DNA from: Nostoc sp. PCC 7120 = FACHB-418
GTDB lineage: Bacteria; Cyanobacteriota; Cyanobacteriia; Cyanobacteriales; Nostocaceae
Assembly (NCBI RefSeq): GCF_000009705.1
Contig: NC_003272.1
Span: 4,350,001 to 4,382,000, forward strand
Length of the DNA stretch: 32,000 nt
Direction of reading: 5' to 3'
Below the pieces are notes generated by a model. It made no database searches. It worked only from the letters and a program-made list of their open reading frames with translations, and was not told the origin of the DNA. Each line of letters opens with the position of its first letter. Within the stretch, counting starts at the first letter, position 1. Below, one piece after another: positions 10,902-32,000 of the stretch. The translations under genes were made by a program, and so were the position numbers.

Positions 10902-10973
10902 GCCGATGTGGCTCAGTGGTAGAGCAGCTGATTCGTAATCAGCAGGCCGTGGGTTCAAATCCCATCATCGGCT
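10902..10973 (+). tRNA. tRNA-Thr (anticodon CGU)
   Basis: Manual cloverleaf: acceptor GCCGATG/CATCGGC, D arm GCTC-AGTGGTA-GAGC, anticodon arm GCTGA-TTCGTAA-TCAGC (U33, CGT, A37), variable AGGCC, T arm GTGGG-TTCAAAT-CCCAT, discriminator T. No CCA is encoded. Confidence 0.9.
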
Positions 10974-11123
10974 TGGTTTTCATAAAATCATATTTTTGTC
11001 TTGACTAATTCTTGTGTACAGTGACAAATTAGAGGCTATTTATAAAGTAAATCTAAAGGAGAGCTATCAGATAAAAAGGCAGCGATAAGATACTGTTTGT
11101 AGAGTGTATTTACATAGGAAACA

Positions 11124-11507
11124 ATGAGACGAAAGTCTTATTCTACAGACCTTAATGACTCAGAATGGGCAATTTTAGCTCCTTTGATTCCACCCGCTAA
11201 ATGCGGTGGGCATCCCCGAACAACTGATATGCGAGAAGTATGCAACGCTATCTACTACCATCTGAAAACAGGTTGTCAGTGGGATATGCTTCCAGGGGAT
11301 TTTCCTCCTAGTTCAACTGTTTACAGCTACTATCGTAAATGGCAAAAACGAGGTATCTGGGAGCAAATGAATCATACTTTGCGCGATCAAGTTCGTCAAA
11401 AAATGGGGAAGTCAACTCAACCCACGGCGATCGCGGCAGACAGCCAGTCGGTAAAAACGACTGAAAAAAGGGGGATGTGTACGGTTTTGATGGTGGCAAG
11501 AAGGTAA
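11124..11507 (+). CDS. IS5-family transposase, OrfA (N-terminal part)
   Basis: 127-aa ORF with the typical N-terminus (LNDSEWAILAPLIPP...GHPR...R...NAIYY.LKTGCQW..LP). Confidence 0.8.
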   Translation: MRRKSYSTDLNDSEWAILAPLIPPAKCGGHPRTTDMREVCNAIYYHLKTGCQWDMLPGDFPPSSTVYSYYRKWQKRGIWEQMNHTLRDQVRQKMGKSTQPTAIAADSQSVKTTEKRGMCTVLMVARR

Positions 11508-11917
11508 AAGGACGAAAGCGGCAAACTTTGGTTGATAGTCTGGGACTTTTGTTAAAAGTGGTTGTAAGTGAAGCAAATGCTGGAGAAAGATTACTTGCCG
11601 CCTATACTTTGATGGAACTGTTAGAAGAGCGTCCAGAATTACTGGAAAAAGTTGAAGTCATCTGGGTTGATTCCGGCTATGACGGTGATAAATTTGCGCT
11701 CTCTGTTTGGCTGATGATTCAAGCTCATGTTGAGGTAATCCGGCGTACTAATCAAGAATTTCAGGTTTTGCCCAAACGGTGGGTAGTAGAAAGAACATTT
11801 GGCTGGTTAAACCAGTACCGTCGTCTCAGTAAGGATTATGAGCGTCTCCCAGAAATGAGTGAGGCTGCCATATATGCCGTTATGACTCGTATTATGCTAC
11901 GTCGTCTAGTCGTCTAA
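11477..11917 (+). CDS. IS5-family transposase, OrfB (DDE part), probably fused to OrfA by a -1 frameshift
   Basis: It lies in the -1 frame relative to OrfA. The overlap contains AAAAAAG (11464-11470). Reading through gives ...TTEKKGDVYGFDGGKKVKGRKR..., a GKK.KGRKR motif I associate with IS5-family enzymes. Confidence 0.8.
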   Translation: MYGFDGGKKVKGRKRQTLVDSLGLLLKVVVSEANAGERLLAAYTLMELLEERPELLEKVEVIWVDSGYDGDKFALSVWLMIQAHVEVIRRTNQEFQVLPKRWVVERTFGWLNQYRRLSKDYERLPEMSEAAIYAVMTRIMLRRLVV

Positions 11918-12165
11918 AGATTTACTTTATAAATGGTCTCTTATTTGTCGTCGGTGACAAATTGATGTCGTTGTGACAAATTATTGTCATCCAACTTAGT
12001 AACTCGCTTCCATATATATTTGTGACAAATTATTGTCATTTTTCGGAAAAGCAACAATTTATATATGGAGTTTCTCTATATATTTAGCCCCTATTATAAG
12101 CGTTTGCATTCAAAAAGCTCTTTTAATCACTTCTATGAGTAGCTTATCCTGAATAACTTTAGTTA

Positions 12166-12222
12166 CAAGCCGATGACGGGATTTGCTTTCAACCCTCTAC
12201 TTCTTGGAAATTAATTACACCA
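12166..12222 (-). ncRNA. Delocalized (orphan) homing crRNA: degenerate repeat plus a tRNA-Thr-matching spacer
   Basis: On the minus strand, 12222 to 12186 is a degenerate repeat that keeps only the 3' handle GAGGGTTGAAAG. It is followed by CAAATCCCGTCATCGGCTTG (12185 to 12166). That spacer matches CAAATCCCATCATCGGCTTG at 10956-10975 at 19 of 20 positions. Confidence 0.8.
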
Positions 12223-12254
12223 TCAGACAACGTAAGGCAGTTTCATATCCAATT

Positions 12255-12577
12255 TGTTTTCACCATGTATTACCGGAAGGAGGGTTGCAACCTGACGGAG
12301 CAAGCTGATTTGGTAGAAGCTGTTAATCTTTCAACCCTCCCATTACTGGAAGGAGGGTTGCAACGATCGCGCACAATATAAAGTTCTGAATATTCAAACT
12401 TTCAACCCTCCCATTACTGGAAGGAGGGTTGCAACGTTAAATTTTGGATGCGATCGCCCCACCGCTTCCTTTCAACCCTCCCATTACTGGAAGGAGGGTT
12501 GCAACGCGATGGATAAAGATACTAACTTTTTCTTCATCAGCTTTCAACCCTCCCATTACTGGAAGGAGGGTTGCAAC
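12255..12577 (-). CRISPR. Type V-K CRISPR array: 4 perfect 37-bp repeats plus 1 degenerate terminal repeat, 4 spacers
   Basis: Plus-strand repeat CTTTCAACCCTCCCATTACTGGAAGGAGGGTTGCAAC occurs at 12541-12577, 12469-12505, 12399-12435 and 12328-12364, with a degenerate copy at 12255-12291. Spacers are 35, 33, 34 and 36 bp. In the transcribed (minus) orientation the repeat is GTTGCAACCCTCCTTCCAGTAATGGGAGGGTTGAAAG. Confidence 0.95.
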
Positions 12578-12774
12578 TGCCACTCTATGAAACGCTTGTC
12601 TAGCAAGGTTTTTGAAGCAGATTTGCGCGAACCTCATCAAATAGCCTCCCAGGATGTAATTTTTGAATTGTCTACAAAAGAAATTTACTCATAAATTCCT
12701 TGTAGGATAAGGTTTTCAGGATGTGCGCGAACCTAGATCGGAATTTTGACCTCTCTTTGGTGCGTCAAATCAAG

Positions 12775-13000
12775 AATTGGGGAGGGTTCCCCCTTGATCG
12801 GGGGTGATTGGGTAGCCACTACAGCAGTACATCCGCGCCCTTATTGCTGGGAGCGCACCTATCCTGTCTATTGGCAGCAGCATCAGGGTGAGCAGCTACC
12901 AGGGTCAGAAAGCAAGACTGTATTGCTACAGTCAAACTAACCCTCATTTAACACAATTCAGAGGCTGCAAGCAGCATGAACTGCGGCGCTATTACATATT
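12775..13000 (-). ncRNA. Cas12k tracrRNA locus (boundaries approximate)
   Basis: It lies between the cas12k stop and the array on the same strand. The minus-strand sequence ATATGTAATAGCGCCGCAGTTCATGCTGCTTGCAGCC...CACCCCCGATCAAGGGGGAACCCTCC is GC-rich and stem-rich. It is nearly colinear with the ShCAST tracrRNA/sgRNA scaffold as I recall it. It contains CCCTCC and GCTTTC segments complementary to the repeat 3' end GGGAGGGTTGAAAG. Confidence 0.8.
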
Positions 13001-13024
13001 ATATTTTCAAGGTTCAGATGTTTG

Positions 13025-14944
13025 TCAACTTCGCCTAGCTAGGCGGAGACTATAAGCATAGAGGGCTAATTCTTTTGCTTTATCCTGCGGACTGCCACGA
13101 ATAGGTTGTTTACCTTCCTCAATCACAATTCCTATCTGAGCAGCTTTACTTTGAATACTTTGAATTAATCTGCCATAGCTCCATTGATGGACGTTAACTC
13201 GATACTGTTTGGCATATTTTTGCTGTATTTCTGAGGAGCTAGGACATTTTGCTTCGGCTATAGCTTGAATTTCGCTTTGAACAATTTCTCGTATATCTCC
13301 TAACTTAGGTAGGACTATACTGCCTGCTTTATAGGTCTGTGCGATCGCTACAATTTCTTTAGCTAGTAATCGGTCTACATATTGCCCTAACTCAGATGCC
13401 CCAAATTGATTAGGAGAGAAACTTTTTTGTGCTTTATGGCGTTCGTGGGATAGCGATCGCTGTTGTCGTCGTTGACGATTTAGAAGTTCGTAATTGTCGC
13501 CTAGTAACTGGCGGAGACTCCGATAAGTTAAAACTTTACCTGCAATCGCATCAACTACAGCGATAGTTGCAGGTTTTTCTAGCCCCAAGCTTACTCCAAC
13601 CAAAATATGTGATTGACCCTGGTACAGGGGTTTACTAGGACGATCAAAGGAATTGTTGATGCGAGTCAGTGTTGATTCTTTACGTTTGATAAAAGCGAGT
13701 TGTGTTTCGCTAAGGTCACTTTTATCCTTCATCTTGGTGATGAATTTGGTAATCTCCTCTGCTTTCTCTTGACGAACTTGTTCTGTTCCTTCAGCAGTCC
13801 AAAGGCGATTGTCAACACAGCAGTAAAGAGCTAAGTGTCCAATATTCCAAGGTTCGCCTTTACCTTCACCTTGTTGCCAAGCTAAACGACCATTTCTGAG
13901 TGTAAATAAACCACTAGAATGCTGATTTTTACTTTTGCGTTTAGTTTGTTGGTCTTCCAAGAAGCGTTTAAACCAGTACAGTTGACGACTATCGCAGTAA
14001 ACTTCAAAAATTAAATCGCTTAAACCATTGAAGTGAACACATAATCTACCTTTTTCGTTTGTTGACCAAACTAAATCTTCATTAGTCTCAAAAACCACAG
14101 GAAAAGGGATAGAACTAGATCGGGTTAAGAGAATATCCTGCCAGCGTTTGGCTTCAGCATTATTTTCTGGAACGGTGGTTGTAGCGGTGAAGAGTGTTTC
14201 CAACCATTTAGAGTACGTTAAATCTCGTCCCTTGGGAATCCGACTTGTTAGTTTGTCTGTTAACCGTTGAATTTGGATTTCAACTTTACGGCGGCGTTTA
14301 GCAAATTTTTCGGGGTTTTCTTCTTTGTCATTGAGTTTGCAGCCATTTTTCAGCAGATAACTGATGGCACTACGACTGAGTATGTCGTCAGTTTCTTGGT
14401 AAGCGTCAAATAATTTACGAGATAAGCTTCGGTCAGGATTGGAAGCAGATGATTTTTTAGATTGTTTAGTTTTTCCTCTTTTAGTTAAAAGAGTTTTAGG
14501 ATCAGATTCTGGTGTAGTTATTGCCAAAATCTCAGATGCTTTGGTACGAATTGCCTCTAAGCTAAAACCACTAATTTCTACTAATTCAACATCGCTGTTG
14601 AACATTTCTATCCAGCGTAATTTGCCATCTAGCTGTTGTTGTAGCCGTTTCTGTATAGTCAGCCAAGATTTGTAGATGTAATCAACAATATGAATTGCTG
14701 ATATATAGAAACGACTAGGCTGACCTGTAAAACTAGGGTCAGTTTTCAGGGGTTGGCAAAGCTGGGAAACAACAGTTGATGGCAGTTTGCCATTTCTTCG
14801 CCATTTCTCAAAATCTGGATGTTTACTAAGCTGCTGAAGCAGTTCGTTAATTAGAGGTGTGTTCGATTCTGCCATTAACTTCCAGAGTTTTTGGCGGGTA
14901 GATTCACTGGCAATTAAGCGACATTGAATAGTTTTTTGGCTCAT
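13025..14944 (-). CDS. cas12k: Cas12k (type V-K effector, naturally nuclease-deficient)
   Basis: 639 aa counted from the Met of MSQKTIQCRLIASESTRQKLWKLMAESNTPLINELL. It is colinear over its full length with the ShCas12k sequence as I recall it, through ...QPIRGSPQDKAKELALYAYSLRLARRS. The 13 extra N-terminal codons in the track ORF (to 14983) would overlap the divergent promoter. Confidence 0.95.
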   Translation of the reverse strand: MSQKTIQCRLIASESTRQKLWKLMAESNTPLINELLQQLSKHPDFEKWRRNGKLPSTVVSQLCQPLKTDPSFTGQPSRFYISAIHIVDYIYKSWLTIQKRLQQQLDGKLRWIEMFNSDVELVEISGFSLEAIRTKASEILAITTPESDPKTLLTKRGKTKQSKKSSASNPDRSLSRKLFDAYQETDDILSRSAISYLLKNGCKLNDKEENPEKFAKRRRKVEIQIQRLTDKLTSRIPKGRDLTYSKWLETLFTATTTVPENNAEAKRWQDILLTRSSSIPFPVVFETNEDLVWSTNEKGRLCVHFNGLSDLIFEVYCDSRQLYWFKRFLEDQQTKRKSKNQHSSGLFTLRNGRLAWQQGEGKGEPWNIGHLALYCCVDNRLWTAEGTEQVRQEKAEEITKFITKMKDKSDLSETQLAFIKRKESTLTRINNSFDRPSKPLYQGQSHILVGVSLGLEKPATIAVVDAIAGKVLTYRSLRQLLGDNYELLNRQRRQQRSLSHERHKAQKSFSPNQFGASELGQYVDRLLAKEIVAIAQTYKAGSIVLPKLGDIREIVQSEIQAIAEAKCPSSSEIQQKYAKQYRVNVHQWSYGRLIQSIQSKAAQIGIVIEEGKQPIRGSPQDKAKELALYAYSLRLARRS

Positions 14945-14964
14945 AAAAATAAAATACCATACAA

Positions 14965-14979
14965 AACACATAATGTTAT
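14965..14979. promoter_or_regulatory. Candidate CvkR operator in the cas12k/cvkR divergent promoter
   Basis: AACACATAATGTTAT fits the published CvkR motif AnnACATnATGTnnT (recalled). It lies 21 bp upstream of the cas12k ATG (14944) and 48 bp upstream of the cvkR ATG (15027). Confidence 0.65.
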
Positions 14980-15026
14980 ACAAAGCACTAATGTGTTTTA
15001 GAAGATGCTTCTATAGGATGTTTCTT

Positions 15027-15479
15027 ATGGAAGGAAAGTTCTACACAAGCACAGAAGCATCAGAAATTACTCATTGCTCTCGCCGCCAGTTGCAGTATTG
15101 GCGAGAGAAAGGAGTTATAGTACCTACGGTTAACAGTAGTGGCAAAGGTCGTAATGTTTACTACTCTAAAGCTGATTTACTTGCATTAACAGTAATGGAG
15201 CAGTTGCTGTCTACTGGGTTAAATTTTGACCTTTGCTATGCAGCATTGCAAACACTGCGCAAACAGGAACCTTGGTTATTTGATGAGTCTGTCCCAGAAG
15301 AAAAGATGAAGCGGCTCATGTTATTACCCACGCGATCGCCTGAACAACCTTTGCAACTAGCAGAGTTTGACAAGCAAGCGGCACTAGAAGCACTTTGTCA
15401 TGGACAAACTGTGATTCCTTTTTGGAGCGATCGCATTCATCAACAATTAAGAGAGAATCTTAAAAGCTTTAGTAGCTAA
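15027..15479 (+). CDS. cvkR: MerR-type transcriptional repressor of V-K CAST (CvkR-like)
   Basis: It is divergent from cas12k. The MerR HTH (YTSTEASEITHCSRRQLQYWREKGVIVP) begins right at the N-terminus. I chose the Met of MEGKFY (150 aa), because the track start at 14973 would overlap the cas12k 5' end. Confidence 0.85.
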   Translation: MEGKFYTSTEASEITHCSRRQLQYWREKGVIVPTVNSSGKGRNVYYSKADLLALTVMEQLLSTGLNFDLCYAALQTLRKQEPWLFDESVPEEKMKRLMLLPTRSPEQPLQLAEFDKQAALEALCHGQTVIPFWSDRIHQQLRENLKSFSS

Positions 15480-15533
15480 TTGGACTTTGAATATAGAGCT
15501 TATGTGGTTGCCACATAGCACAATGCTAGTGGT

Positions 15534-17411
15534 TTAATATTTCTTGATAATTTCGGGATGCAGCTTATATTGTCTGCCATTCTCGTGATTATGCTCTCGA
15601 ACAAAATCCTCCGAAGATTCAAAACTTAAGCTTTTACCCATTGCTTTTCCAATTAGTGTTAGCAAATTATTTGCCCGCATCTGGAAGAAACCTTCAAAGT
15701 CATCTCGCCGCAAAGTTTTTGGAGATATAGCGTGCGATCGCAATATTTCATCAAGCCTTGTAGCTGATGTCCCACACAGTTCAAACTCCTCTAAATAAAC
15801 AGAAGGGGCTTTACTACCAATCTTTTTGTTTGTTTTGGCGCTTAAAGGTGTGCGATTAATCAAGCAGTTATACTTTTTGGGATCAATTCCTTTTTTGCGA
15901 CACCATGCCACAGGAAAGATATGGTGCGAATCTATCTTTTCTTCAAAATAAATCACATCATTGATTTCTTCCCCAGTACACCAATCAATTGCCCCCTCAC
16001 GTCGTAGTAAAGCAGCTAAACCTTGGTACACTGCCCCGTAACGTTTTCTAACGCCAATCAATCGATCAAAAGAAAAATCCGCTTGCACAATGGTGAGTGG
16101 TAGTGAACCACCTGCCAACCAATCTGGCACTTCTATAACGTCTCTTCCGGCTCGTGCCTCGTACCAGCGTGTATATATTTCACCAAACATCCCACACCAT
16201 AACCAGCGTTCCAGCATAGAGCGTACTTGAAAAGAACGGGAACGCTCTCCTAGAACAGTGAAAATGGCGCTGAGGATGACTAATTGAATGGGGTAAGCTA
16301 AATCATCTGCATCGAAGATTTTTTGGTTATGAAGAAAACGAGCAGACTCTTCAAAACCTTTAGTAATTGGGTCAGCCCATTTCTGATACTCCTCTTTGGT
16401 GAGTTTCAAAACTTCAGCGCGATCGCCTGCAACGCCTGGTAATTTATCGATGTTCCAACCTTGTTTAGTAGCTTCTATCCTCTTGGCGTAACCAGCAACC
16501 AAAGTAACTGCTTGGACAAAATCGGTGCTGCGTAGCTTACGTAAGACTTTTAAAGATTGGAAGCGATTTTCGCGCTGTTTCCAATCATCTCTTAAACTAA
16601 AGTCGGAAGTGCAATAGCTGGAACTCATTAAGTCAAAATAATTGAGGTCACATCCAGAAGTGTTTGTATCTTCAAAGACTTGACAAACGGCTTCTTTTGG
16701 TAAAGAGTCACGCAGTTGGATCACAGGTATTTGATAATGCTCAAATTTTTTGAGAATTTCTAGTTCTAAGATGTCAATTAGCTCCAGTTTTTGAGGATCG
16801 TACTGCCAATATTTAGAAAATTTACTCCGCCATTCAGAAAAAAAGAAAACTTTGGATAAGGGGAACAATAGCGCCTCATATTCTTTTTCAGGAGTAGAAC
16901 AATCAATCAGACCACCCGTGAATATTCGCGCAATTTTCGATTCAGGTAAGGCAATGATTGCACTACGACGATCGCATTCTGAATTAAGGCATTTTTTAAT
17001 ATCTAGGTAGTACCACTTTTTAATAATTTTTTGGCTTTTCTGGTCTTTAATGATTACAGGTAGCTCAGATAACAACACCATAAACATGGTTGTCAGGCGT
17101 TGCTGTCCATCAAGAATTAATAAGTTTGGCTCATGATTTTCTGGTTTTAATACCCCATCAACTAGGCGGGGTTTGAATTGTCGGCTTTGAATGCTTTGTT
17201 GGAGCATCATGACTACGCCAATTGGATAAGCAAGAGATATGCTGGTAAGCAAACGACGTACACGGGTATCATCCCAAACCCAATCTCTTTGAAAATCTGG
17301 AAGTTGAATGCGTCCATTTTTGATATCTTTCAGGACATCAAGGAGAAAATACTTAGTGATGTCAAAGGTAGAGATTGAGTTCATTTGGTGTTCTGCCATT
17401 TTTGTCCTCAA
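15534..17411 (-). CDS. DUF262/DUF1524 (GmrSD-like) putative type IV restriction / modified-DNA nuclease
   Basis: N-terminal DUF262 motifs (LPDFQRDWVWDD; ILDGQQRLTT) and a C-terminal His-Me/HNH-like DUF1524 motif (IDSHHIFP...NRTPLSAKTNKKIG). Confidence 0.8.
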   Translation of the reverse strand: MRTKMAEHQMNSISTFDITKYFLLDVLKDIKNGRIQLPDFQRDWVWDDTRVRRLLTSISLAYPIGVVMMLQQSIQSRQFKPRLVDGVLKPENHEPNLLILDGQQRLTTMFMVLLSELPVIIKDQKSQKIIKKWYYLDIKKCLNSECDRRSAIIALPESKIARIFTGGLIDCSTPEKEYEALLFPLSKVFFFSEWRSKFSKYWQYDPQKLELIDILELEILKKFEHYQIPVIQLRDSLPKEAVCQVFEDTNTSGCDLNYFDLMSSSYCTSDFSLRDDWKQRENRFQSLKVLRKLRSTDFVQAVTLVAGYAKRIEATKQGWNIDKLPGVAGDRAEVLKLTKEEYQKWADPITKGFEESARFLHNQKIFDADDLAYPIQLVILSAIFTVLGERSRSFQVRSMLERWLWCGMFGEIYTRWYEARAGRDVIEVPDWLAGGSLPLTIVQADFSFDRLIGVRKRYGAVYQGLAALLRREGAIDWCTGEEINDVIYFEEKIDSHHIFPVAWCRKKGIDPKKYNCLINRTPLSAKTNKKIGSKAPSVYLEEFELCGTSATRLDEILRSHAISPKTLRRDDFEGFFQMRANNLLTLIGKAMGKSLSFESSEDFVREHNHENGRQYKLHPEIIKKY

Positions 17412-17526
17412 GAAAGATGCGACTGTTCGTCATAGTTAGTACCTATGTACCTCAGCCTAAGATTCTCCTTGTGTTAACAGCAAGGGGTTTTTGGAGCAAT
17501 TGGTCGTGAGTAGCGATCGCTTTTAC

Positions 17527-17841
17527 TTATTCTTGAGGGAAGTCTGGAGGTAAAGCCACAATTCCTTTTGCAACAAGTTGTCTAAATTGGTTGAGCAAGT
17601 CTGCTTGCCGTAATATGCGGGTAACGTATTTAGGTCGTCGGCGAAAATTAGTTCCCCAGTCTTTAACAGTTTTTGGGCTAGTACCTGTAACTTGGGCGAT
17701 CGCGTTAATGCAGGCTTTGCGATAATTACGTCCTGCTTCTTGTCTAACCCAACGGCGACAATACTCCGTCGGTTCAAGGGGCAATAGACGGAGCAGATCA
17801 ATTGAATAATTATTCTCATGGGAGTCTCTCCCAGTCTGCAT
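17527..17841 (-). CDS. Small HTH-containing protein (paralog 1)
   Basis: The 104-aa protein is clearly paralogous to the 18001-18318 product (shared EP.EYC.RWV....GYRKACI.A.A..TG.S..T...WG.NF.RRP.YVT.ILR.AD.LNQ). This supports this frame over the overlapping 17523-17900 ORF. Confidence 0.6.
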   Translation of the reverse strand: MQTGRDSHENNYSIDLLRLLPLEPTEYCRRWVRQEAGRNYRKACINAIAQVTGTSPKTVKDWGTNFRRRPKYVTRILRQADLLNQFRQLVAKGIVALPPDFPQE

Positions 17842-18000
17842 CTTTGGTTTTGATGAGTCAGATTAACCCAGCAGAGGCAGGGAGTATGAGGAAATGCCAC
17901 TCAGCTAACCTTTTACTCCTATGAATCCTGTGCTTGCTAAACCCAAATTAGAAAATATCTGCTCAAAGTACAAGTATTTTAGTCACGAATCACGACCAAA

Positions 18001-18318
18001 TTATTTTTGAGGATAATCAGGAGGTAAGACTATTTTTCTAATTTGGTTAAGCATATCTGCCATGCGTAGTATATGTGTCACATAGTTTGGTCTCCTGTCA
18101 AAGTTTTGTCCCCAATTTCCTATAGTTCTCTCACTTAGCCCGGTTGCTTCAGCTAAAGCAGCAATACAGGCTTTTCTGTATCCCCTTTCTTCAGAGGACA
18201 ACTCAACCCATCGTTGGCAATATTCCAAAGGCTCCAAAGGCTCCTCACTGAGCGCATCGATTCTATATTGAGTTGTCTGGGGATTACTGTCTATTACTCG
18301 GTTTATTCTTAATTGCAC
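18001..18318 (-). CDS. Small HTH-containing protein (paralog 2)
   Basis: 105 aa, paralog of 17527-17841. It is flanked by AGTCACGA(A/T)T motifs at about 17981, 18330 (inverted) and 18355. Confidence 0.6.
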   Translation of the reverse strand: MQLRINRVIDSNPQTTQYRIDALSEEPLEPLEYCQRWVELSSEERGYRKACIAALAEATGLSERTIGNWGQNFDRRPNYVTHILRMADMLNQIRKIVLPPDYPQK

Positions 18319-18408
18319 AATAACTCATGAATCGTGACTAGTTCAAAAATATTATGAGTCACGATTTGTGTAAAAAACACTGCAATGCCTGCGGCGGGCT
18401 ACGCCAAC

Positions 18409-18470
18409 GCATTCATCAACAATTCAGGGGCAATCTTCAAAGCTTTAGTAGCTAATTTGACGTTAAATAT
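18409..18470 (+). other. Relic of a second cvkR 3' end (last ~16 codons plus downstream sequence)
   Basis: By my manual alignment, about 54 of 62 positions are identical to 15433-15494. The frame and stop are preserved: RIHQQFRGNLQSFSS* against RIHQQLRENLKSFSS*. Weaker similarity continues about 25 bp further (TGTGGCTGCCA against TGTGGTTGCCA). Confidence 0.6.
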
Positions 18471-18582
18471 GTTAAGTTCTGTGGCTGCCATCTGGGAAAA
18501 TTATAGTTTTATACTTAACAACAGCAAATGAGAAAGCGTAGAATTATACCAAGCATCCTCTTAACCGAAAGCCGACCCTTTT

Positions 18583-20913: not shown

Positions 20914-20938
20914 TTAATCATCTTTAAATTTGTTTTGT

Positions 20939-21931: not shown

Positions 21932-21938
21932 GTAAGCA

Positions 21939-23393: not shown

Positions 23394-23435
23394 TAGATAG
23401 AAACAAAATATCTTAAAATATATGGAGATTAGATT

Positions 23436-23660
23436 ATGCAGATGGAAGTAGTAGAATTTCAAGGTATTGTCAAAGATGGTGTAATTCAAATTCCTGAAAT
23501 TTATAAAGGAGAGCTAGATGGAGAATCTGTCAAAGTAATTGTTATGAAAAAAGTTAGAAAAACAGCAGCAGTAGATATTATTGCTGAACTCATCGAGCAT
23601 CCGGTGGAGTTTGAATGGCCTCCTTTGAACCGAGAAGAGATTTATGACCGCAATTCATGA
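23436..23660 (+). CDS. Putative antitoxin (AbrB/SpoVT-like) of a VapBC-type pair
   Basis: This 74-aa ORF overlaps the downstream PIN gene by 17 bp. Its N-terminus resembles a swapped-hairpin domain (GIVKDGVIQIPEIYKGEL). Confidence 0.55.
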   Translation: MQMEVVEFQGIVKDGVIQIPEIYKGELDGESVKVIVMKKVRKTAAVDIIAELIEHPVEFEWPPLNREEIYDRNS

Positions 23661-24066
23661 AAATGGCTATTTTCTAGATTCTAATATCTGGATTTATGCT
23701 CTAGCGAACAATCAAGATATTAACAAACGCAATATAGCTTGTCGTCTAATTGATGCTGAAGGAGTAATCATTAGTACACAAGTTATTAATGAAGTCTGTC
23801 TAAATCTAATTAAAAAATCTTCTTTCACTGAGCAACAAATAACACAGTTAATCGAGGCATTTTATAAAGGTTCTCACATCATTTCATTTAATCGTGATAT
23901 TTTGGTGAACTCTTCTAATCTTCGCAGTAGATATAAGTTGTCTTTTTGGGATAGTTTAATTGTTGCTTGTGCTTTAGCTGCGGGAGCAAGTATTCTCTAT
24001 TCTGAAGATATGCAGGATGGGTTAGTGGTAGATAGTCAATTACAAATTGTGAATCCGTTTAAATGA
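23644..24066 (+). CDS. PIN-domain toxin (VapC-like)
   Basis: Acidic PIN residues fall in the expected contexts (FLDSNIWIYAL; VINEV; FWDSLIVACA; SEDMQDG). Its stop overlaps the hsdS ATG (ATGA). Confidence 0.8.
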   Translation: MTAIHENGYFLDSNIWIYALANNQDINKRNIACRLIDAEGVIISTQVINEVCLNLIKKSSFTEQQITQLIEAFYKGSHIISFNRDILVNSSNLRSRYKLSFWDSLIVACALAAGASILYSEDMQDGLVVDSQLQIVNPFK

Positions 24067-24476
24067 AAGTAGATACATTTTTTCAAAATTTTGAATTGTT
24101 AACTGATGCGCCAAATGCAGTAGTAAAGCTGCGTGATTTGATTCTACAATTAGCTGTGAGAGGTAAACTTGTTTTCCAAAATAATAACGATGAACCAGCT
24201 AAAATATTGCTAAATAGAATTAAAGCCGAAAAGCAGGAAACATATTCCCAAAAAAGGGTGAAAACTATTAAATCTTTACCCCCGATTTGTGAACATGAAA
24301 CTCATTTTAAAAAGCCTCAAAATTGGGAATGGTGTCGTTTAGGAGATATTATTCATATTTCTTCTGGTAACTATCTTCCATCACACAAAATGGCAGATGA
24401 TGGACAAATACCTGTCTACGGTGGAAATGGTATTACAGGGTATCATGATCAAAATAATATTAATAAGCCTACTTTA

Positions 24477-25503
24477 CGCCATGTGCGACTTAATATTCTG
24501 TAACAAGATCGTCGAACTGAAGAGGGTCACAATTGTGGCGATTAAGCCAGAAACAGACGGTATGAGCTAAAATCTTGCGATTGAGCCGACTGGTAAGATG
24601 CCACATATCTCTCGCTCGAATCTTCTCTATATGAAATCTCTCAACTAATTGACCAATTACTGTTTCAATTAGGCGACGAAAGCGTTGCATTAATCGCACT
24701 GAAGATCGGCTACGAGAGTCAGACATATTAGAACGCAAAGGGGTTTGTAAAGTAATACCCACTTCTTTAAGTTCTCCTGACAAGAACTGACTTAAATAGC
24801 CCTTATCTCCGATTAATAAACCTTTAATTCGCGTGATTAAATCCCAAAGTGCGTCCCGTTCACTGCCATTTGCCGGAGTCAGGGTAAACCCACTAATAAC
24901 TCCTGTGCCACTAACGATTAAATGCCCATGAAACCCATAGTACGTCTGTTTTTTAGCAGCACAAAAACCATAATCTGCAAGGGATTTAAAACTTCGGCAG
25001 TTGGGAGCGCGACTCAAGCCACACAAAGGTATTGGTAATCCATCAATCAAATGAAGTTGATCAGAGTATGCTCCTAAATACTGTGCTAATTTTTGTTGTA
25101 TGAGTTCCTTGTACTGCCAACAATTAGCTGCTTGACGAATAAAAGCATAGCGACTCTTTAACTGAGGAAATAGCCCTAACCAGTGACGGTGAAAGTATTT
25201 CCAAATGTCTTTGTCAGCATCTATTCCCAAAAACTCTGCCACTACTTCCATTGTTAAAACTTCACTCTCCCTTAAACTCGGAGCAAAACCTCGTCTCTTG
25301 ATTGGGTATATCTGGGTGATTTCCATCAGCACGTCGTCAACACAGCAAAATACGGCAATGATAAACTCTTCAATAGAAAACATTTTTCCCGCATTCCATT
25401 CACTGGTAACGATTTTCTCGCTCCAGTGCGGATTGTGGGAATTTTCTTTTCAATCGTTCATACACCGAACTTGTGTAACGAAACAATAAGTCGCACATCG
25501 CGT
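24477..25503 (-). mobile_element. IS982-like insertion sequence (~1.03 kb) inside hsdS
   Basis: Inverted ends are CGCCATGTGCGACTTAAT... (24477 onward) and the reverse complement of 25503 downward, ACGCGATGTGCGACTTATT.... The flanking direct repeat TACTTTA is at 24470-24476 and 25504-25510 (the boundary is ambiguous by 1 bp). It carries a single transposase ORF. Confidence 0.8.
24490..25383 (-). CDS. IS982-family DDE transposase
   Basis: 297 aa with FCCVDD near the N-terminus, IDGLPIPLC, YGFCAAKKQTYYGFHGHL and LIGDKGY. I associate these with IS982-type enzymes; the family call is from memory. Confidence 0.8.
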   Translation of the reverse strand: MFSIEEFIIAVFCCVDDVLMEITQIYPIKRRGFAPSLRESEVLTMEVVAEFLGIDADKDIWKYFHRHWLGLFPQLKSRYAFIRQAANCWQYKELIQQKLAQYLGAYSDQLHLIDGLPIPLCGLSRAPNCRSFKSLADYGFCAAKKQTYYGFHGHLIVSGTGVISGFTLTPANGSERDALWDLITRIKGLLIGDKGYLSQFLSGELKEVGITLQTPLRSNMSDSRSRSSVRLMQRFRRLIETVIGQLVERFHIEKIRARDMWHLTSRLNRKILAHTVCFWLNRHNCDPLQFDDLVTEY

Positions 25504-26789
25504 TACTTTAGTAATTGGTAGAGTTGGCTATTATTGTGGCAGCATTCACATAACTCCGAATTCTGCTTGGATTACAGATAACGCGTTCGTAACCTATTTC
25601 TCAGAATCAAATATATACATTCGCTTTTTATATTGGCTTTTGAAGGCAACAAATCTTCAAGAAAATAATAATGCTACTGCACAACCTGTGATTTCTGGAG
25701 GTAAAGTATATCCCATCGTTGTTTGCTTACCACCACTTACAGAACAAAAACGTATTGTAGAGAAGTGCGATCGCCTGCTCTCAACCTGCGACGAAATCGA
25801 AAAACGCCAGCAGCAAAGGCAACAGAGCATTTTGAGGATGAATGAGAGTGCGATCGCTCAACTCCTCTCCTCCCAAAATTCCGACGAATTCCGCCAACAC
25901 TGGCGGCGCATTTGCAATAATTTTGACCTACTCTACAGCATCCCTGAAACAATTCCTAAACTGCGTCAGGCGATTTTGCAATTGGCTGTGCAGGGTAAAC
26001 TTGTGCGTCAAGATCCAAATGATGAACCTGCCAGTTTGTTGCTTGAAAAAATAAAGGTTAAAAAGGAAAAGCTGATTCAAGACAAGAAGCTTAAAGAGAC
26101 TCCATTATTACCTGCAATTACTCAAAATGAAATAGAGTACACGATACCAAATACATGGTGTTGGGCAAGGTTAGCTAATATTTGTGAGTTTATAACAGAT
26201 GGAACTCACTATACACCCAAGTATACCGAGCATGGGCGAATATTCTTATCATCTCAAAACGTTAAACCTTTTTCTTTCATGCCAAACAATCATAAGTTTG
26301 TTTCTGAAGAAGCATATCAAGGCTATATCAAAAATCGAAAACCAGAATTTGAAGATATACTTTTGACACGAGTTGGTGCTGGAATTGGAGAAGCTGCTGT
26401 TATAGATCAAAAATTAGAATTTGCAATTTATGTAAGTTTAGGATTGCTACGTCCATTCAAAGAATTCATAGATCCTTATTATTTAGTAATCTGGCTTAAC
26501 TCTCCGATAGGCACTAAACATTCTCAGAAAAATACCTATGGAAAAGGTGTTTCACAGGGTAATTTGAATTTAGGATTAATCCGAGGATTTGTTGTGTCTG
26601 TTCCACCACTTGCAGAACAAAAACGGATTGTAGAGAAGTGCGATCGCCTGATGTTCCTCTGCGATACCCTAGAAGCCAAATTGAAACAAGGGCGAGACAG
26701 CAGCGAGAAACTGATGGAAGTCGCAGCAAGGCAAGTGTTGGCGGTATAGGAATAGATTAGTTGTAGCGAAATTTCCTACTACCTCTTAT

Positions 26790-27194
26790 TCAGTTGTGAA
26801 TTGACAAAACCCCTGTAACCAACCATGACTGGATAACGATACCAATATAAGCAACCCATCCTACAAAAGTAACTATAGGAACAATTGTTTTAATTTGGTT
26901 AATCGTCTCTGTAATCAGCATAGGCATCACCTTCTCTTTTTTCATTTTTGAACTGAACAATAGGTACAGAAGGCTGCATACTAAACTGATAATAAAAGTC
27001 GCACCTCCAATCATGTCGCGGAATTGAACCGCAAGGGTTGTCCCAAAATCTGTATATTTTGTATTTTTTGAATTATAAGCTATAAGAAAATTTGTTAGGG
27101 GTGAGTTTTTGCTACTTGACCTTTTCTCCAAATTTTGTAAAGCAACAACACAAGACAGCATGAAATATGGTGGCAAAATGAATACCTTTGCCAA
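26790..27194 (-). CDS. Hypothetical small membrane protein
   Basis: 134-aa AT-rich ORF with 3-4 hydrophobic segments and no recognisable family. It could be spurious. Confidence 0.35.
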   Translation of the reverse strand: MAKVFILPPYFMLSCVVALQNLEKRSSSKNSPLTNFLIAYNSKNTKYTDFGTTLAVQFRDMIGGATFIISLVCSLLYLLFSSKMKKEKVMPMLITETINQIKTIVPIVTFVGWVAYIGIVIQSWLVTGVLSIHN

Positions 27195-27294
27195 TGGCTG
27201 AAATTCCTCTTAGTAGCGATTACCACTGTTAATATTGATTAACAGATTCTACCCAAATGAGTCTGGGTATATTTTGGTAGTTTGAGGATTCAGG

Positions 27295-28410
27295 ATGGCA
27301 AGCCTATCGATACTAGACATCGAAGAACTATCAGAAGGTTGTGATGTTGAAGCTAAACAATCATCTGGTTGAGACGGACAAGGTGAATTACCTAAAAGTT
27401 TCTTCGATTCATATTCTGCGATGGCTAACACCTACGGGGGTGTAATTTTTTTGGGAATTGAAGAAAAGCCCAAAGGAAGATTCAGTGTTACAGGTATTGC
27501 TGTTCCAGAACGTGTCCTCAAAGCTCTTTGGGATGGGCTTAATAATCGCCAACGGATAAGTATAAATTTGCTTACCGATAAAATGGTGGAAGTTATTGAG
27601 ATACAAGGCAAGCAAGTAATCCGCATCCAAGTACCGCGAGCGCGGCGAGCGCAACGACCTGTTTATGTAGGACAGAATCCGTTAACAGGCACTTATCGTA
27701 GAAATTATGAAGGTGACTACCTATGCGACGAAGAAACTATTAAGCGTATGCTTGCAGAGCAAGTAGAGGAAGTACGAGATGCTCGGTTACTCGAAAATTA
27801 CGGTTTTGATGATATCGAGCCAAATACACTAAAAGCATATCGAAATCAATATGATTTAACAAAAGCTTTGTCCGCTCTTGTTAGAGATGGCTTCCTTGAA
27901 TCTGGAGGTATTGCACGCGGAACTTTCTATTTTTTTCCAGGAGAGCCTCCTAATGCAGAAGCTGACTTGGTAGCTCAAAACTATAAGTTTGTAGAAAAAA
28001 GCAGTCCTGAAGATTTATTGTTAGGAATTATACCAAAAGAAATTTTTGATGATTTGAAGCCAAGCTCCGATGATTTAAAGCCAAGCTCTGATGATTTAGA
28101 GCCAAGCTCCGATGATTTAGAGCCAAGCTCCGATGATTGGCAATCGCTAATGGCGATCGCTGTAACTATCAGAAATAAGGGCAAGGTATCAACGGATATT
28201 ATGGAAGCAACAATTCTCAGACTTTGCCAGGGAAGGTTTTTGAACCATAAACAACTTCAAGAATTGTTAGATCGTTCTTACAATACCTTAAGGCTCGGCT
28301 ACCTGAGCAAGATGCACAAGAAAGGTCAACTGGAGTTGCGATATCCTGACAAACTTACTCACCCCAATCAGGGATATCGTACCAAAAATTCAAGCAGTAG
28401 TGATTTTTAA
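27295..28410 (+). pseudogene. AlbA_2 (Schlafen/divergent AAA_4-type) DNA-binding protein gene with an in-frame TGA
   Basis: The ATG at 27295 opens MASLSILDIEELSEGCDVEAKQSSG. A TGA at 27370-27372 follows, and the same frame continues DGQGELPKSFFDSYSAMANTYGGVIFLGIEE..., the typical AlbA_2 N-terminal signature. The track ORF restarts at Met 27421. The C-terminus carries a winged-helix-like tail (YPDKLTHPNQGYRTK). Confidence 0.7.
28048..28138 (+). repeat. 21-bp in-frame tandem repeat x4.3 (DDLKPSS/DDLEPSS)
   Basis: The unit gatgattt(g/a)(a/g)agccaagctc(c/t) starts at 28048, 28069, 28090 and 28111, with a partial fifth copy. Confidence 0.9.
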
Positions 28411-28413
28411 GAC

Positions 28414-28920
28414 TCAGGTAATTTTTTGATACTTAGTCATTTCTGCAAAAGGTGTTCGACACCTATGACAACACTTATCCTCCCACAGCGCAGGTATTTT
28501 GAAAGGTGCTTCACAATTTGGACACTTCGCTAAAATCTTGAGTTCGTGGCGATCGCATTTCCATACTGATTTATACTGCCACTCAATTCGGTGACAAGGT
28601 GCTTCAGCATAACAAGCTCCACACAGGCGTATTGGCTCATGCTGCATACCAACTCCCAAAGGTGGCAGCATTTGAGCTAACCTGTCTGCATCTACTTCTA
28701 CTAGAGATGCGATCGCTTCTAATTCTTTTTGGCTAGGACGAGGATTAAAGTGAAATCGCTCCCACCTTGCAACTACTGCACCAATTCCTGCCAATTTACC
28801 CAACCCACTAGCAGATAAATGGTTAGCACGTCTAAATCGACCTAGAAAATGGCTCAAGCTTTCCCCTTCATAAGGTTGGATAATAAAAAGCCAAGGCTTA
28901 ACATCTGGTGCTGCCATCAC
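28414..28920 (-). CDS. tniQ: TniQ (short V-K type target-selector adaptor)
   Basis: 168 aa with PDVKPWLFIIQPYEGESLSHFLGRFRRANHLS and Cys-rich zinc-ribbon motifs (CGACY...CPNC...CHRC). It is near-colinear with ShTniQ as recalled. It overlaps the tnsC stop by 4 bp. Confidence 0.9.
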   Translation of the reverse strand: MMAAPDVKPWLFIIQPYEGESLSHFLGRFRRANHLSASGLGKLAGIGAVVARWERFHFNPRPSQKELEAIASLVEVDADRLAQMLPPLGVGMQHEPIRLCGACYAEAPCHRIEWQYKSVWKCDRHELKILAKCPNCEAPFKIPALWEDKCCHRCRTPFAEMTKYQKIT

Positions 28921-29747
28921 TTATACTCCTGCGCCACTTCCTGTAAAACAGGCTTGTCAATTTTCTTTAATCCCCTTGATAGAGAACGAATTGCTGCTTC
29001 CCTGAGAATTTCATCTAACCGACCAATGTAACCTTCTGTTGCCGAAGTTAAAATCCGCAGCATATCCTTGCTAATGAGATTAGAAGGCAATGGTAACTTT
29101 AAAATCTTATCCTCCCAGGCTTGTACAGTATCCTGGAAATCTTTCCCTGACAACTTTCCAAAACGATGACAAGCCCGAAAGCGGTTATAAACTTGTTCAT
29201 CTCGCTTAATTACTGCTTCTAATCGATCAGTTCCTACTAAAACAACAGCAATGCCCAACTTGTCATAAATATCACGCACCTCTGCAAAAGTCTCAGGCTT
29301 GAGGCGGTCAGCTTCATCAACAATAATCATTTCTACGCCACAGCCTTTTAAAACCTCCATTGTTCTGCCACGAAAATCTGATACTGTTCCCTTAGTTGCT
29401 TTAAATTTTAGATACTCAATAATTTCTTGAAACAAATCCTTAGCACCGCATTTTTGGGGTGGCTGAATATAAACCACAGGGACAATTGGTGGTCGTCCCA
29501 CCTCCGCCTGTACTTTTTGTCTGTATCTGTACGCATCACAAGCAACTGTTTTCCCCGTGCGTGATTCTCCAACTACTCGGCAAAATTGTCGTGCTTTACG
29601 TTTTCCATCCAACCAATCATGCAAAGACCTCACTTGCTGTAATGGAACAATACTCTTACCCTTGAGACGAGCAATTTCAGCTTGCAACCATTCTTCATCC
29701 GGTTTCACCCCACCTAACTGTTGAGCGATCGCTTTGGCATCTGTCAT
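28917..29747 (-). CDS. tnsC: TnsC AAA+ ATPase
   Basis: 276 aa with Walker A (GESRTGKT) and Walker B (IIVDEADRL). It is colinear with ShTnsC as recalled. Confidence 0.9.
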   Translation of the reverse strand: MTDAKAIAQQLGGVKPDEEWLQAEIARLKGKSIVPLQQVRSLHDWLDGKRKARQFCRVVGESRTGKTVACDAYRYRQKVQAEVGRPPIVPVVYIQPPQKCGAKDLFQEIIEYLKFKATKGTVSDFRGRTMEVLKGCGVEMIIVDEADRLKPETFAEVRDIYDKLGIAVVLVGTDRLEAVIKRDEQVYNRFRACHRFGKLSGKDFQDTVQAWEDKILKLPLPSNLISKDMLRILTSATEGYIGRLDEILREAAIRSLSRGLKKIDKPVLQEVAQEYK

Positions 29748-29750
29748 TGT

Positions 29751-31364
29751 TTAAAATCCGTATTCTTCACGCAGTTGTTCATAGTCCCAAACCTCTAGTT
29801 CTGAGGATGAAGATTGAACCTCAGTAGTAGATTCCACTTCTTCTGCTTCCATAACAGAAGATGCTAGGGACTCAGTTTTACTTTCATTCACCGCAGCAGA
29901 ACGCAAAATTGCCTGCTCTAATTTTTGACGTTCCTTGCGACTTTTCTTGTTTGCTACCATCGCGTCACGCTCAAGGACTTCTTGCAATAAGGCTTGGTTA
30001 CTGACAGTCTTTCCTGCATTACGCAGTCTACGACTAGCTGCTTCAGCTTCATCTAATGAAAGTTGCTCAGTCTCCAAACCTTGAGCATGAGTGCGAGTCA
30101 GAAAAACTTCTTGGCTTTTCTCTTGGCGATAAACCAGCACCGTTGTAATATCTCTGGGGTCATATCTTAAATTAACTGTCTCCCCTGCATATCCTGCTAG
30201 ATACTCCCCTCGATACATCACATTTTGAAACTGTAAGCATCCGCCTCTTTGTACTGTGCGCCGTGACTGTTTCATCAAGCAGATATCTAAATCACGTTCT
30301 TCGATTGGCACTGGTACTGAAGGCAATCCCGCTTCCCAACGCCCAAAGCGGGTTTGATCGCCCATTCGCGCATCAATACTTTGGTTATAGCGGTCAACAA
30401 TGTAGCGAACGAGTAATTGTTCTAGTTCCCGCAAGGTTAGTTTTGCATCCTTCTCTGCATCTTCAAGGCGTTCCTGTACATTAGATCCGGTATAACCTGG
30501 AAGTGTTGAAAATAGTTGGTCATTCAGTGTCTTAAAAGGACGCTCAACAATACCACCTTCACTGGGGCGATCGCGTAAATGACAAACAAACCCCAATTGC
30601 GCCCCGATTTGACTTAAATGGTTTGAACGAAAATCTTTACCCCCATCAGTATAAAAATGTTCTGGCTTACCGTAAGTTCCCCATTCGCAGTGCAGTTTGT
30701 ACTCTGCACCATATTTTTTCGGCAAAATCGCATGGCGTAATGCTAAAGCTACTACAACTGAACTAGGCGCATCAAAGCCCAAATTAATACCCATGATGCA
30801 ACGAGAATAAGTATCAATTACAGTTGTCAGCCAGGGACGACTTAAAAGTTCACCATGCTGATCTACCAGCAGTACATCTACACGAGTATGGTCACATTGC
30901 CAAACATGGTTGCTGTAATCGACTGATAAATCTTGTCCCTCACGAGTTTTAACGGAAAGTGTTGTCCCCCTCCAACCAGGGCTGCGGATACTCTTAGTTT
31001 TTTCTTTTTGTTCCAAGATTGGAGCTAATACCCTTAAAACTGTCCTGTAATTAGGAGGCTTGGAATCGCCTAGTTCACGCGCTTTAGCTTGAACCCTCAA
31101 GGCAACTTGTTTGGGTGTCATGCGTTTACTACCCTTATTACCTTCCTTGTAAGTTTTGATGATGAAGTTTTCCCAAAACTCACCAATTCGATGTTTTCCT
31201 TTATCCGCCCTACCTGTCTGAATGAATCCAACTAAGCCATCCTCTTCCCATTTTTTCACCAAACGCTGCACCGTTCGCACTGTCACACCCAGTGTGTCCG
31301 CAGCCTCCTTCAACTTCTGCCCATAAGTTGTGCGATCGCAAGGCTCAAGTAAAGTTTGGATCAC
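29751..31364 (-). CDS. tnsB: TnsB DDE transposase (Mu/Tn7 type); its conserved N-terminal ~42 codons are in another frame upstream
   Basis: HTH (TVRTVQRLVKKWEEDGL) and DDE core (WQCDHT...YTDGGKDF...PSEGGIVER), colinear with ShTnsB as recalled. The track start is a GTG. Homologous sequence (VTELSEEAQLKLEV) continues upstream, and an ATG at 31498 is out of frame because of an 8-bp duplication. Confidence 0.9.
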   Translation of the reverse strand: MIQTLLEPCDRTTYGQKLKEAADTLGVTVRTVQRLVKKWEEDGLVGFIQTGRADKGKHRIGEFWENFIIKTYKEGNKGSKRMTPKQVALRVQAKARELGDSKPPNYRTVLRVLAPILEQKEKTKSIRSPGWRGTTLSVKTREGQDLSVDYSNHVWQCDHTRVDVLLVDQHGELLSRPWLTTVIDTYSRCIMGINLGFDAPSSVVVALALRHAILPKKYGAEYKLHCEWGTYGKPEHFYTDGGKDFRSNHLSQIGAQLGFVCHLRDRPSEGGIVERPFKTLNDQLFSTLPGYTGSNVQERLEDAEKDAKLTLRELEQLLVRYIVDRYNQSIDARMGDQTRFGRWEAGLPSVPVPIEERDLDICLMKQSRRTVQRGGCLQFQNVMYRGEYLAGYAGETVNLRYDPRDITTVLVYRQEKSQEVFLTRTHAQGLETEQLSLDEAEAASRRLRNAGKTVSNQALLQEVLERDAMVANKKSRKERQKLEQAILRSAAVNESKTESLASSVMEAEEVESTTEVQSSSSELEVWDYEQLREEYGF

Positions 31365-31533
31365 CTCTAGCTTGAGTTGGGCTTCCTCTGAGAGTTCTGT
31401 AACAATCAGATTCGTCTCAGGAGGTGAGGAGGTGTGTTGTTGTCTTGTAATAAAGCTTCCGCAGTATCCACTGCGGTATGAACAGTAAAATCAGACATAA
31501 GATTTTTTGTTCATGAAACAAAGGTAATTTATA

Positions 31534-31548
31534 AATACATAATGTTAT
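31534..31548. promoter_or_regulatory. Second candidate CvkR operator, upstream of tnsB
   Basis: AATACATAATGTTAT fits AnnACATnATGTnnT and is 13/15 identical to the box at 14965-14979. It lies 36 bp upstream of the tnsB ATG at 31498. Confidence 0.6.
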
Positions 31549-31565
31549 TCTAAACGTGGAGAAAA

Positions 31566-31776
31566 CGACAGTCAATTTGTCATTATGAAAATATACAAAA
31601 CCTTTTTTGTAATTACTGAAGCGACAGTTAATTTGTCATTTTTGCGGAAAACGACATTTATTTAGTCACGTATGAGAAATAATGTAATAACTCTTAAATA
31701 GCTAAAACCTTTGTATTGCAAGGATTCATTCGACGACATTAATTTGTCACGACGACAAACAATTAGTCACTGTACA
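31566..31776. repeat. CAST end proximal to tnsB (I believe RE in ShCAST nomenclature) with five TnsB-type repeats
   Basis: ~18-bp repeats: CGACAGTCAATTTGTCAT at 31566-31583, CGACAGTTAATTTGTCAT at 31622-31639, CGACATTTATTTAGTCAC at 31652-31669, CGACATTAATTTGTCAC at 31734-31750 and CGACAAACAATTAGTCAC at 31753-31770. The terminal TGTACA is at 31771-31776. Confidence 0.85.
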
Positions 31777-31848: not shown

Positions 31849-32000
31849 TCAAAGTTGAATAAACCAAGCGCACAAAGAGGCAACTTGGTCAGGCTGAGTG
31901 AGGTTTGCTGCATTAGTAAGAATGCCAGAATTTAGTTGATGCCAAATTTCTTCTGCCATGCTTTTTTCTATAGCAGATCCCACAAAAAAAGTATATGGCT

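Follow-up and report, generated by a model that had tools for sequence, protein, structure and literature searches.

The type V-K CRISPR-associated transposon AnCAST at tRNA-Thr(CGU) of Nostoc sp. PCC 7120: three lesions in a probably immobile copy and end-fusion scars at its attachment site

A stretch of 32,000 nucleotides from the chromosome of Nostoc sp. PCC 7120 = FACHB-418 (NC_003272.1, positions 4,350,001 to 4,382,000; hereafter called the window) was analysed. Positions 11015-31776 are occupied by a type V-K CRISPR-associated transposon (CAST) of 20,762 bp that adjoins a gene for tRNA-Thr(CGU). The best explanation, in which we have very high confidence, is that this element is AnCAST, of the V-K subgroup V1, which homed to tRNA-Thr(CGU) and is now decaying and probably not autonomously mobile. 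On the minus strand from 31776 onward come tnsB, tnsC and tniQ, followed by about 12.9 kb of cargo, a gene of the MerR type that runs in the opposite direction, then cas12k, a structured stretch of non-coding sequence and a CRISPR array. An earlier note on this DNA, made from the letters alone, had proposed a type V-K CAST. This proposal stands, as all four core proteins match the Cas12k, TnsB, TnsC and TniQ families with very high scores, including the proteins of ShCAST from Scytonema hofmannii. No core protein failed to match its family, the gene order was not encountered without the ends or the target duplication, and nothing turned up against the identification as a V-K CAST.

AnCAST of Anabaena sp. 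PCC 7120 has been described with all3613 as cas12k, alr3614 as cvkR and all3630 as tnsB (Ziemann et al., 2023, PMC9938897). The genes of the window and their order agree with these landmarks. The size given in that paper is about 21 kb, and the cargo is said to contain extra transposases, a toxin-antitoxin pair and a restriction-modification system, all of which were found in the cargo of the window. TnsC and the flanking DUF3493 proteins have exact matches in CP183817.1 and AP018216.1, which are PCC 7120-type chromosomes with an identical gene order. From these exact matches and the fit of the published landmarks it follows that the element is AnCAST and was already known, which the earlier note had missed. 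As far as can be told, the published element and that in the window do not differ in sequence. In a paper of 2025 (PMC12416283) the V-K_V1 system of PCC 7120 is called 'adjacent' to the insertion sequence (IS) genes alr3610/alr3611. The V2 CASTs treated there belong to the same overall family; the element of the window is V1 in that scheme, with the trans-activating CRISPR RNA (tracrRNA) directly after cas12k. PCC 7120 also has a V2 V-K system elsewhere, the tracrRNA of which was hit by an IS of the same kind (PMC12416283). In the V-K literature the side of the tRNA and the array is the left end and the side of tnsB the right end (PMC9938897), an orientation that the earlier note had not recognized. 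The keyword-matched text of the two papers contains no mention of an IS-split left terminal repeat, an 8-bp duplication in tnsB, a split hsdS or 31-bp scars, and transposition activity of AnCAST itself is not reported in the keyword-matched passages of PMC9938897. The element is already published and well studied; added here are three lesions in this model copy and the end-fusion scars at its attachment site.

The 639-amino-acid Cas12k had been placed correctly at 13025-14944. This gene (all3613, minus strand) reaches 982 bits with the NCBIfam model NF038191 V_Cas12k (cut-off 150), and its product aligns with ShCas12k (PDB 7N3O) from residues 1-639 to 1-639 without gaps, 520 of the 639 residues being identical (81.4%). 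From this gapless identity of 81% we infer that the RuvC domain is inactive and that Cas12k has no nuclease activity. The genes tnsB, tnsC and tniQ were likewise found on the minus strand at the opposite end, as had been claimed, with matches in Pfam and among PDB chains. They form an operon that adjoins the right end and faces inward, with the 5' end of tnsB frameshifted. For tnsB (all3630; 29751-31498, with its ATG at 31498) the Pfam domains rve and Mu-transpos_C were obtained, together with 1092-1120 bits to the ShTnsB PDB chains; 486 of 557 residues are identical to ShTnsB (87.3%) and the DDE motif contexts WQCDHTRVD, FYTDGGKDF and RPSEGG are kept in the alignment. The gene tnsC (28917-29747, minus strand) encodes 276 amino acids with the Walker A motif GESRTGKT, belongs to Pfam TniB/AAA_22 and scores 498 bits with ShTnsC over residues 1-276. 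The tniQ gene (28414-28920, minus strand) encodes 167-168 amino acids and its product is rich in Cys at the C-terminus; matches were obtained with Pfam TniQ and, at 360 bits, with ShTniQ.

ShCAST is said to go back to Strecker et al. in 2019. It has the same four proteins as AnCAST with the same lengths (PDB 7N3O, 7SVW, 7M99, 7N6I and 8EA3), TnsC and TniQ aligning end to end, and both elements have TGTACAGTGAC-type ends and the same 3' end of the repeat. They differ in host, attachment tRNA and cargo, the cargo of AnCAST being located between cvkR and tniQ; unlike in ShCAST, tnsB of the PCC 7120 copy is broken in its 5' region and the left end is interrupted. Given the 81-87% identity of the proteins, the steps that have been established for ShCAST would apply to AnCAST as well. 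Cas12k, which would not cut DNA, would bind together with the tracrRNA and a CRISPR RNA (crRNA) to a target beside a GTN protospacer adjacent motif (PAM). The target would then be marked by TniQ and a filament of the ATPase TnsC, and the DDE transposase TnsB would join the ends about 60 bp downstream, with the left end nearest to the target, giving a 5-bp duplication.

Both ends of the element could be delimited. The 11-mer TGTACAGTGAC has six matches in the window, against 0.01 expected, all of which are at the tips of the element or in two scars outside the right tip. The right end (31565-31776, minus strand) contains TnsB-type sites at 31565-83, 31621-39, 31651-69 and 31733-50 and a terminal one at 31751-76 that ends with GTCACTGTACA. 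At the left, only the outer 17 bp of the terminal repeat, TGTACAGTGACAAATTA (11015-11031, plus strand), are in place; they are separated from the remaining left end by an IS of the IS5 family (11032-11940, plus strand). This IS is 909 bp long, with inverted ends of 23 bp and two frames that overlap around a run of A7G5; it matches NF033580 IS5 with 124 and 116 bits as well as Pfam DUF4096 and DDE_Tnp_1_2, and is flanked by a TTA duplication (11029-11031 and 11941-11943). It corresponds to the IS of the IS1031 group with the genes alr3610/alr3611 (PMC12416283). The terminal repeat resumes at 11944 with TTTGTCGTCG, the TnsB site being split after 17 of about 27 bp by 912 inserted bp. The rest of the left end (11944-12039, plus strand) comprises what remains of the terminal repeat (11944-11953) and TnsB-type sites at 11954-11971, 11973-11990 and 12022-12039. 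With the IS removed and the terminal sites included, four sites are present on the left and five on the right. The earlier note had overlooked the IS. Its inverted tips are indeed present, but a contiguous inverted terminus of 27 bp exists only after removal of 912 bp at the left end; its repeats are also present, but the '4-5 internal' copies per end are three on the left and four on the right, the numbers 4 and 5 being reached with the terminal sites. The 5-bp duplication TCTTG that it had reported flanks both tips (11010-11014 and 31777-31781).

The array (12255-12577, minus strand) reads towards the left end. Its 37-nt repeat, GTTGCAACCCTCCTTCCAGTAATGGGAGGGTTGAAAG on the minus strand, is present in four good copies (12541-77, 12469-505, 12399-435 and 12328-64) and a degenerate one (12255-91), with spacers of 33-36 nt. 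Between cas12k and the array lies the tracrRNA region (12765-12990, minus strand; 5' end taken from the published start site, 3' end approximate), 226 nt that fold better than all of 200 shuffled sequences (z = -3.2). An array and a structured tracrRNA locus had both been predicted. In PMC9938897 the start site of the tracrRNA is placed 35 nt behind the stop codon of cas12k, with 413 nt from there to the first repeat; both distances fit the window, with a start at 12990 and the first repeat at 12577. The tracrRNA anti-repeat AACCCUCCC is predicted to pair with the repeat of the array. A search of the window with Rfam at the gathering threshold yielded the tRNA only and no tracrRNA match. The tracrRNA of ShCAST is presumably close in sequence to that of AnCAST. 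Between the tracrRNA and the first repeat a 15-nt motif, GAT(T/G)TGCGCGAACCT, occurs twice, at 12620-12634 and 12720-12734, 100 nt apart.

Beyond the array, towards the left end, a crRNA unit was found that accounts for the position of the element. This anchor (homing) unit (12169-12200, minus strand) consists of a truncated repeat R*, GTAGAGGGTTGAAAG (12200-12186), followed by a 17-nt spacer, CAAATCCCGTCATCGGC (12185-12169), a layout as described in PMC9938897. R* is predicted to pair with the 3' tail of the tracrRNA (-17.5 kcal/mol). The attachment target is the sole tRNA gene in the window, tRNA-Thr(CGU) at 10902-10973 on the plus strand (ARAGORN; 76 bits with the Rfam tRNA model), in which a GTT PAM at 10953-10955 precedes the anchor protospacer CAAATCCCATCATCGGC at 10956-10972. 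Spacer and tRNA gene match at 16 of 17 positions, with a mismatch at position 9, where the spacer has G and the tRNA A. Between the PAM and the start of the element lie 59 nt, a distance inside the published range of 46-82 nt (PMC9938897). As the sequence shows, it was through this truncated-repeat anchor crRNA that the present copy of AnCAST homed to tRNA-Thr(CGU). The anchor spacer is a perfect match to the CCCGTCATC variant of tRNA-Thr that is carried by many other Nostocales (loci L013-L088), which suggests that the element was tuned to, or originated from, a host with that variant. For the five spacers no match was found in plasmids or elsewhere within the window, and the matches in phages were at chance level only (E = 0.7).

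The attachment site was then compared among 77 loci from other species, collected via the flanking DUF3493 gene. In Nostoc parmelioides FACHB-3921 (L012) the same tRNA-Thr and right flanks are present with one TCTTG and one 31-bp scar, and without a transposon. Once the window is stripped of the element, of one scar and of two copies of TCTTG, 139 of 146 positions are identical to this site. An empty tRNA-Thr site in relatives that lack the element, which the earlier note had proposed to look for, is therefore available in N. parmelioides, and a plain empty site was seen in four other Nostocales (L013, L018, L042 and L044). Other loci have occupants at the same tRNA-Thr: in Aphanizomenon (L067) a cas12k-bearing element, in two metagenome-assembled genomes of Nostoc (L034 and L086) left-end remnants with no cas12k within 4.9 kb, and in Calothrix sp. 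NIES-2100 (L064) a 51-bp end fusion in which bases 1-45 of the left end are followed by TGTACA. The site in N. parmelioides, the plain empty sites and the other occupants of the same tRNA-Thr together indicate, by sequence comparison, that this tRNA-Thr is a recurrent V-K attachment site and that the TCTTG duplication is genuine. A search of species-representative genomes for the 3' end of the tRNA, a gap of 30-60 nt and the right flank gave no matches, because the closest relative carries the 31-bp scar and farther relatives have another right flank.

These results also bear on whether an ordinary immune CRISPR-Cas system merely neighbours an unrelated Tn7-like transposon. The four spacers of normal length in the array, for which no target was identified, would fit such a system. 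However, cas12k and the transposase genes share one pair of inverted ends and one 5-bp duplication, the whole block is missing at the N. parmelioides site, and the target of the anchor spacer is a tRNA of the host itself, beside the insertion point. Moreover, no TnsA, Cas1, Cas2, Cas4 or nuclease Cas effector was found among the scanned open reading frames (ORFs) of the element or in the precomputed Pfam lists for its called genes. The scan covered all but four short ORFs, three of which (17527, 22215 and 25205) overlap scanned genes, while the fourth (27409-27654) overlaps the likewise scanned gene 27421-28410 on the opposite strand. This agrees with the earlier statement that tnsA and genes for adaptation or interference are absent. 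The probability of an immune system with an unrelated neighbour is regarded as negligible, and the identification as a V-K CAST is retained.

The MerR-type gene divergent from cas12k is cvkR (alr3614), which encodes a repressor. Its longest ORF extends over 14973-15479 on the plus strand (annotated starts differ, giving 150-168 amino acids), and the product matches Pfam MerR_1 and PDB 7XN2 ('Alr3614 protein') with 334.6 bits over 153 residues. The published CvkR motif, ANNACATNATGTNNT, has exactly two matches in the window (0.07 expected): the operator AACACATAATGTTAT at 14965-14979 in the intergenic promoter of cas12k and cvkR, and a second operator at 31534-31548 in the tnsB promoter. The cas12k and tnsB promoters are the two that CvkR is reported to repress, and PtnsB was footprinted by CvkR in a region overlapping the tnsB transcription start site (PMC9938897). 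With the divergent cvkR gene and both operators present, the element belongs to the CvkR-regulated V-K CASTs (AnCAST group).

Three lesions were found in this copy: the IS in the left terminal repeat, a frameshift in tnsB that the earlier note had missed, and an IS of the IS982 family in the cargo gene hsdS. After codon 24 the frame of tnsB is broken by 8 bp that are duplicated exactly in tandem at 31419-31434 (CACCTCCT CACCTCCT on the minus strand, AGGAGGTG twice on the plus strand). Because of this duplication the natural ATG is out of frame, and the frame that starts at 31498 ends after 30 codons. The longest intact ORF begins with the GTG at 31364 and encodes 537 amino acids. Homology to ShTnsB extends upstream of this GTG, in a stretch of the frame that contains no ATG, GTG or TTG. 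Deletion of one 8-bp copy in silico gave a single tnsB ORF of 579 amino acids, and ShTnsB and the relatives in the databases have uninterrupted N-termini across the region. A programmed frameshift was considered and rejected, since the change of frame coincides with the exact tandem duplication and the relatives have one continuous ORF. The duplication is identical in four assemblies, all of one strain lineage, and is therefore not a read error. An intact allele of tnsB was not found among them, the calls of 566 amino acids differing only by a non-canonical start, and a TnsB in the database with 95% identity is the same frameshifted frame.

As the left terminal repeat is split by the IS and tnsB is frameshifted, this copy of AnCAST is probably decaying and not autonomously mobile. 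Expression of ShCAST in PCC 7120 did not remobilize the endogenous elements in six clones (PMC10949235), which is consistent with immobility, although weakly so. Several observations weigh against it. In vivo, transcripts of cas12k, tnsB, the tracrRNA and the array are produced under regulation (PMC9938897), and at the left end the outermost 17 bp are undamaged. One annotation pipeline calls a TnsB of 566 amino acids from an ATT start, and this protein, or that of 537 amino acids from the GTG at 31364, might keep some activity. In addition, the assemblies found are all of one strain lineage, which offers no intact sister copy for comparison. Taken further, these observations would allow the element to be fully functional and autonomously mobile, the IS and the frameshift being tolerated by way of an internal or non-canonical TnsB start and by use of the outer 17 bp and the inner sites across the IS. 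Apart from these lesions the core genes are open, with 81-87% identity to the active ShCAST, and the promoters are active and regulated (PMC9938897); the 566-residue call would supply the required start. Such a mobile element is nevertheless considered unlikely. The conserved stretch upstream of the GTG offers no in-frame start of the usual kinds, the natural ATG is put out of frame by the duplication, the terminal TnsB site is split after 17 of about 27 bp with 912 bp inserted ahead of the next sites, and the endogenous elements did not move in six clones in the presence of the ShCAST proteins. Immobility of the copy therefore remains the preferred reading.

Outside the right end two identical scars of 31 bp, TGTACAGTGACAAATAATTAGTCACTGTACA, are located at 31782-31812 and 31818-31848. 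The order from the tip outward is TCTTG, scar, TCTTG, scar and TCAAAG, of which TCA is the reverse-strand stop codon of a BsobI-like endonuclease gene. Each scar consists of 15 bp of a left-end tip fused to 16 bp of a right-end tip, and the unoccupied site of N. parmelioides holds one copy. The outermost scar lacks a matching duplication, being bordered by TCTTG on the left and by TCAAA on the right. At the junction of the scar a 6-bp direct repeat, GACAAA, is present in both ends of the element; judged from this arrangement, slippage between the GACAAA repeats could produce such an end fusion.

One account of the scars would dispense with transposon footprints altogether. The first would be an old palindrome of chance or structural origin, and the second would have arisen by a 36-bp slippage between the 16-bp direct repeats AATTAGTCACTGTACA. 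In its favour, both scars have one and the same sequence and the whole unit, the 31 bp together with TCTTG, forms an exact repeat; to the right of the outermost scar a matching duplication is missing; and slippage is a more economical source of a second copy than an extra cycle of insertion and loss. On the other hand, every base in the two halves of the scar agrees with the left and right tips, down to the A/T difference at position 12, and TGTACAGTGAC is otherwise absent from the window. A different fusion at the same tRNA-Thr, that of 51 bp in Calothrix NIES-2100, and the left-end remnants without cas12k in the two Nostoc genomes also speak for a derivation from transposon ends. We consider this account a serious one, with a probability that falls somewhat short of even. 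From the tip matches, the rarity of TGTACAGTGAC, the Calothrix fusion and the Nostoc remnants it is nevertheless concluded, at the level of sequence, that at least the first scar derives from CAST ends. The second could reflect another cycle of insertion and loss, or a 36-bp slippage duplication.

A more general proposal is offered tentatively, as one that we think may well be wrong. The scars would mark former V-K CASTs whose loss was almost clean: CASTs without TnsA would regularly be removed through a pathway, linked to the host or to the transposase, in which the two terminal TnsB sites are joined, after which the same tRNA would be reoccupied, with the model AnCAST itself being defective. 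To our knowledge, CASTs that lack TnsA are not expected to excise. Nearly precise excision of composite transposons such as Tn10 leaves a short palindromic remnant of both inverted tips at the old site. The AnCAST scars resemble such remnants, and the GACAAA direct repeat in both ends could mediate the slippage. Unlike the Tn10-type remnants, the outermost scar has no matching target duplication; such remnants are not known from any CAST, and an excision mechanism of this kind is proposed for CASTs by analogy. That the scar might be a spreading miniature element was also considered and rejected: the pattern TGTACAGTGAC-N9-GTCACTGTAC gave two matches in metagenomes, with unrelated centres and no tRNA nearby.

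A pair of genes for the BsobI-like endonuclease and an N6/N4 methylase, about 2.6 kb in size (window 31849-32000; L001:5483-7899), separates the attachment site from a peptidase M42 gene. It is present in PCC 7120 and N. parmelioides and not in Anabaena azotica, where the M42 gene follows about 630 bp after the tRNA. The pair is not part of the element, as it is located beyond the right end and also occurs in N. parmelioides, where the transposon is missing. It appears to form an island of its own at this tRNA site. No right-end-like sequences were found beyond the pair on its far side.

The cargo (15534-28410) occupies 12.9 kb between cvkR and tniQ, in keeping with the earlier estimate of about 13 kb. 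Next to cvkR a GmrSD_N protein is encoded (15534-17411, minus strand), GmrSD being a restriction endonuclease family for modified DNA. The type I restriction genes hsdR (18583-20913) and hsdM (21939-23393) are separated by an ORF without assigned function (20930-21931), and are followed by an ORF of 74 amino acids (23436-23660) that overlaps a PIN gene (23644-24066), together forming a toxin-antitoxin-like pair. The specificity gene hsdS is split into an N-terminal fragment (24063-24475) and a remainder (25504-26749) by the IS982-family element (24476-25503), which measures 1028 bp, encodes a transposase of 297 amino acids, and has 30-nt imperfect inverted ends with TACTTT on both sides. An ORF of 134 amino acids (26790-27194, minus strand) and a gene for an SLFN (Schlafen)/AlbA_2 protein (27421-28410) complete the cargo. 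The GmrSD_N and Schlafen/AlbA_2 proteins may be products of defence genes.

V-K CASTs matter as tools for programmable DNA insertion. AnCAST is already in the literature, where its genetics have been dissected and a crystal structure obtained with it, and finding it again adds nothing. PCC 7120 serves as an in vivo model of CAST regulation, and its native copy appears to be broken in the 5' end of tnsB and in the left end. These two lesions would explain any lack of mobility, and their repair is advisable ahead of activity assays. The end-to-end scars at tRNA-Thr are a small lead on how V-K CASTs are lost from genomes.

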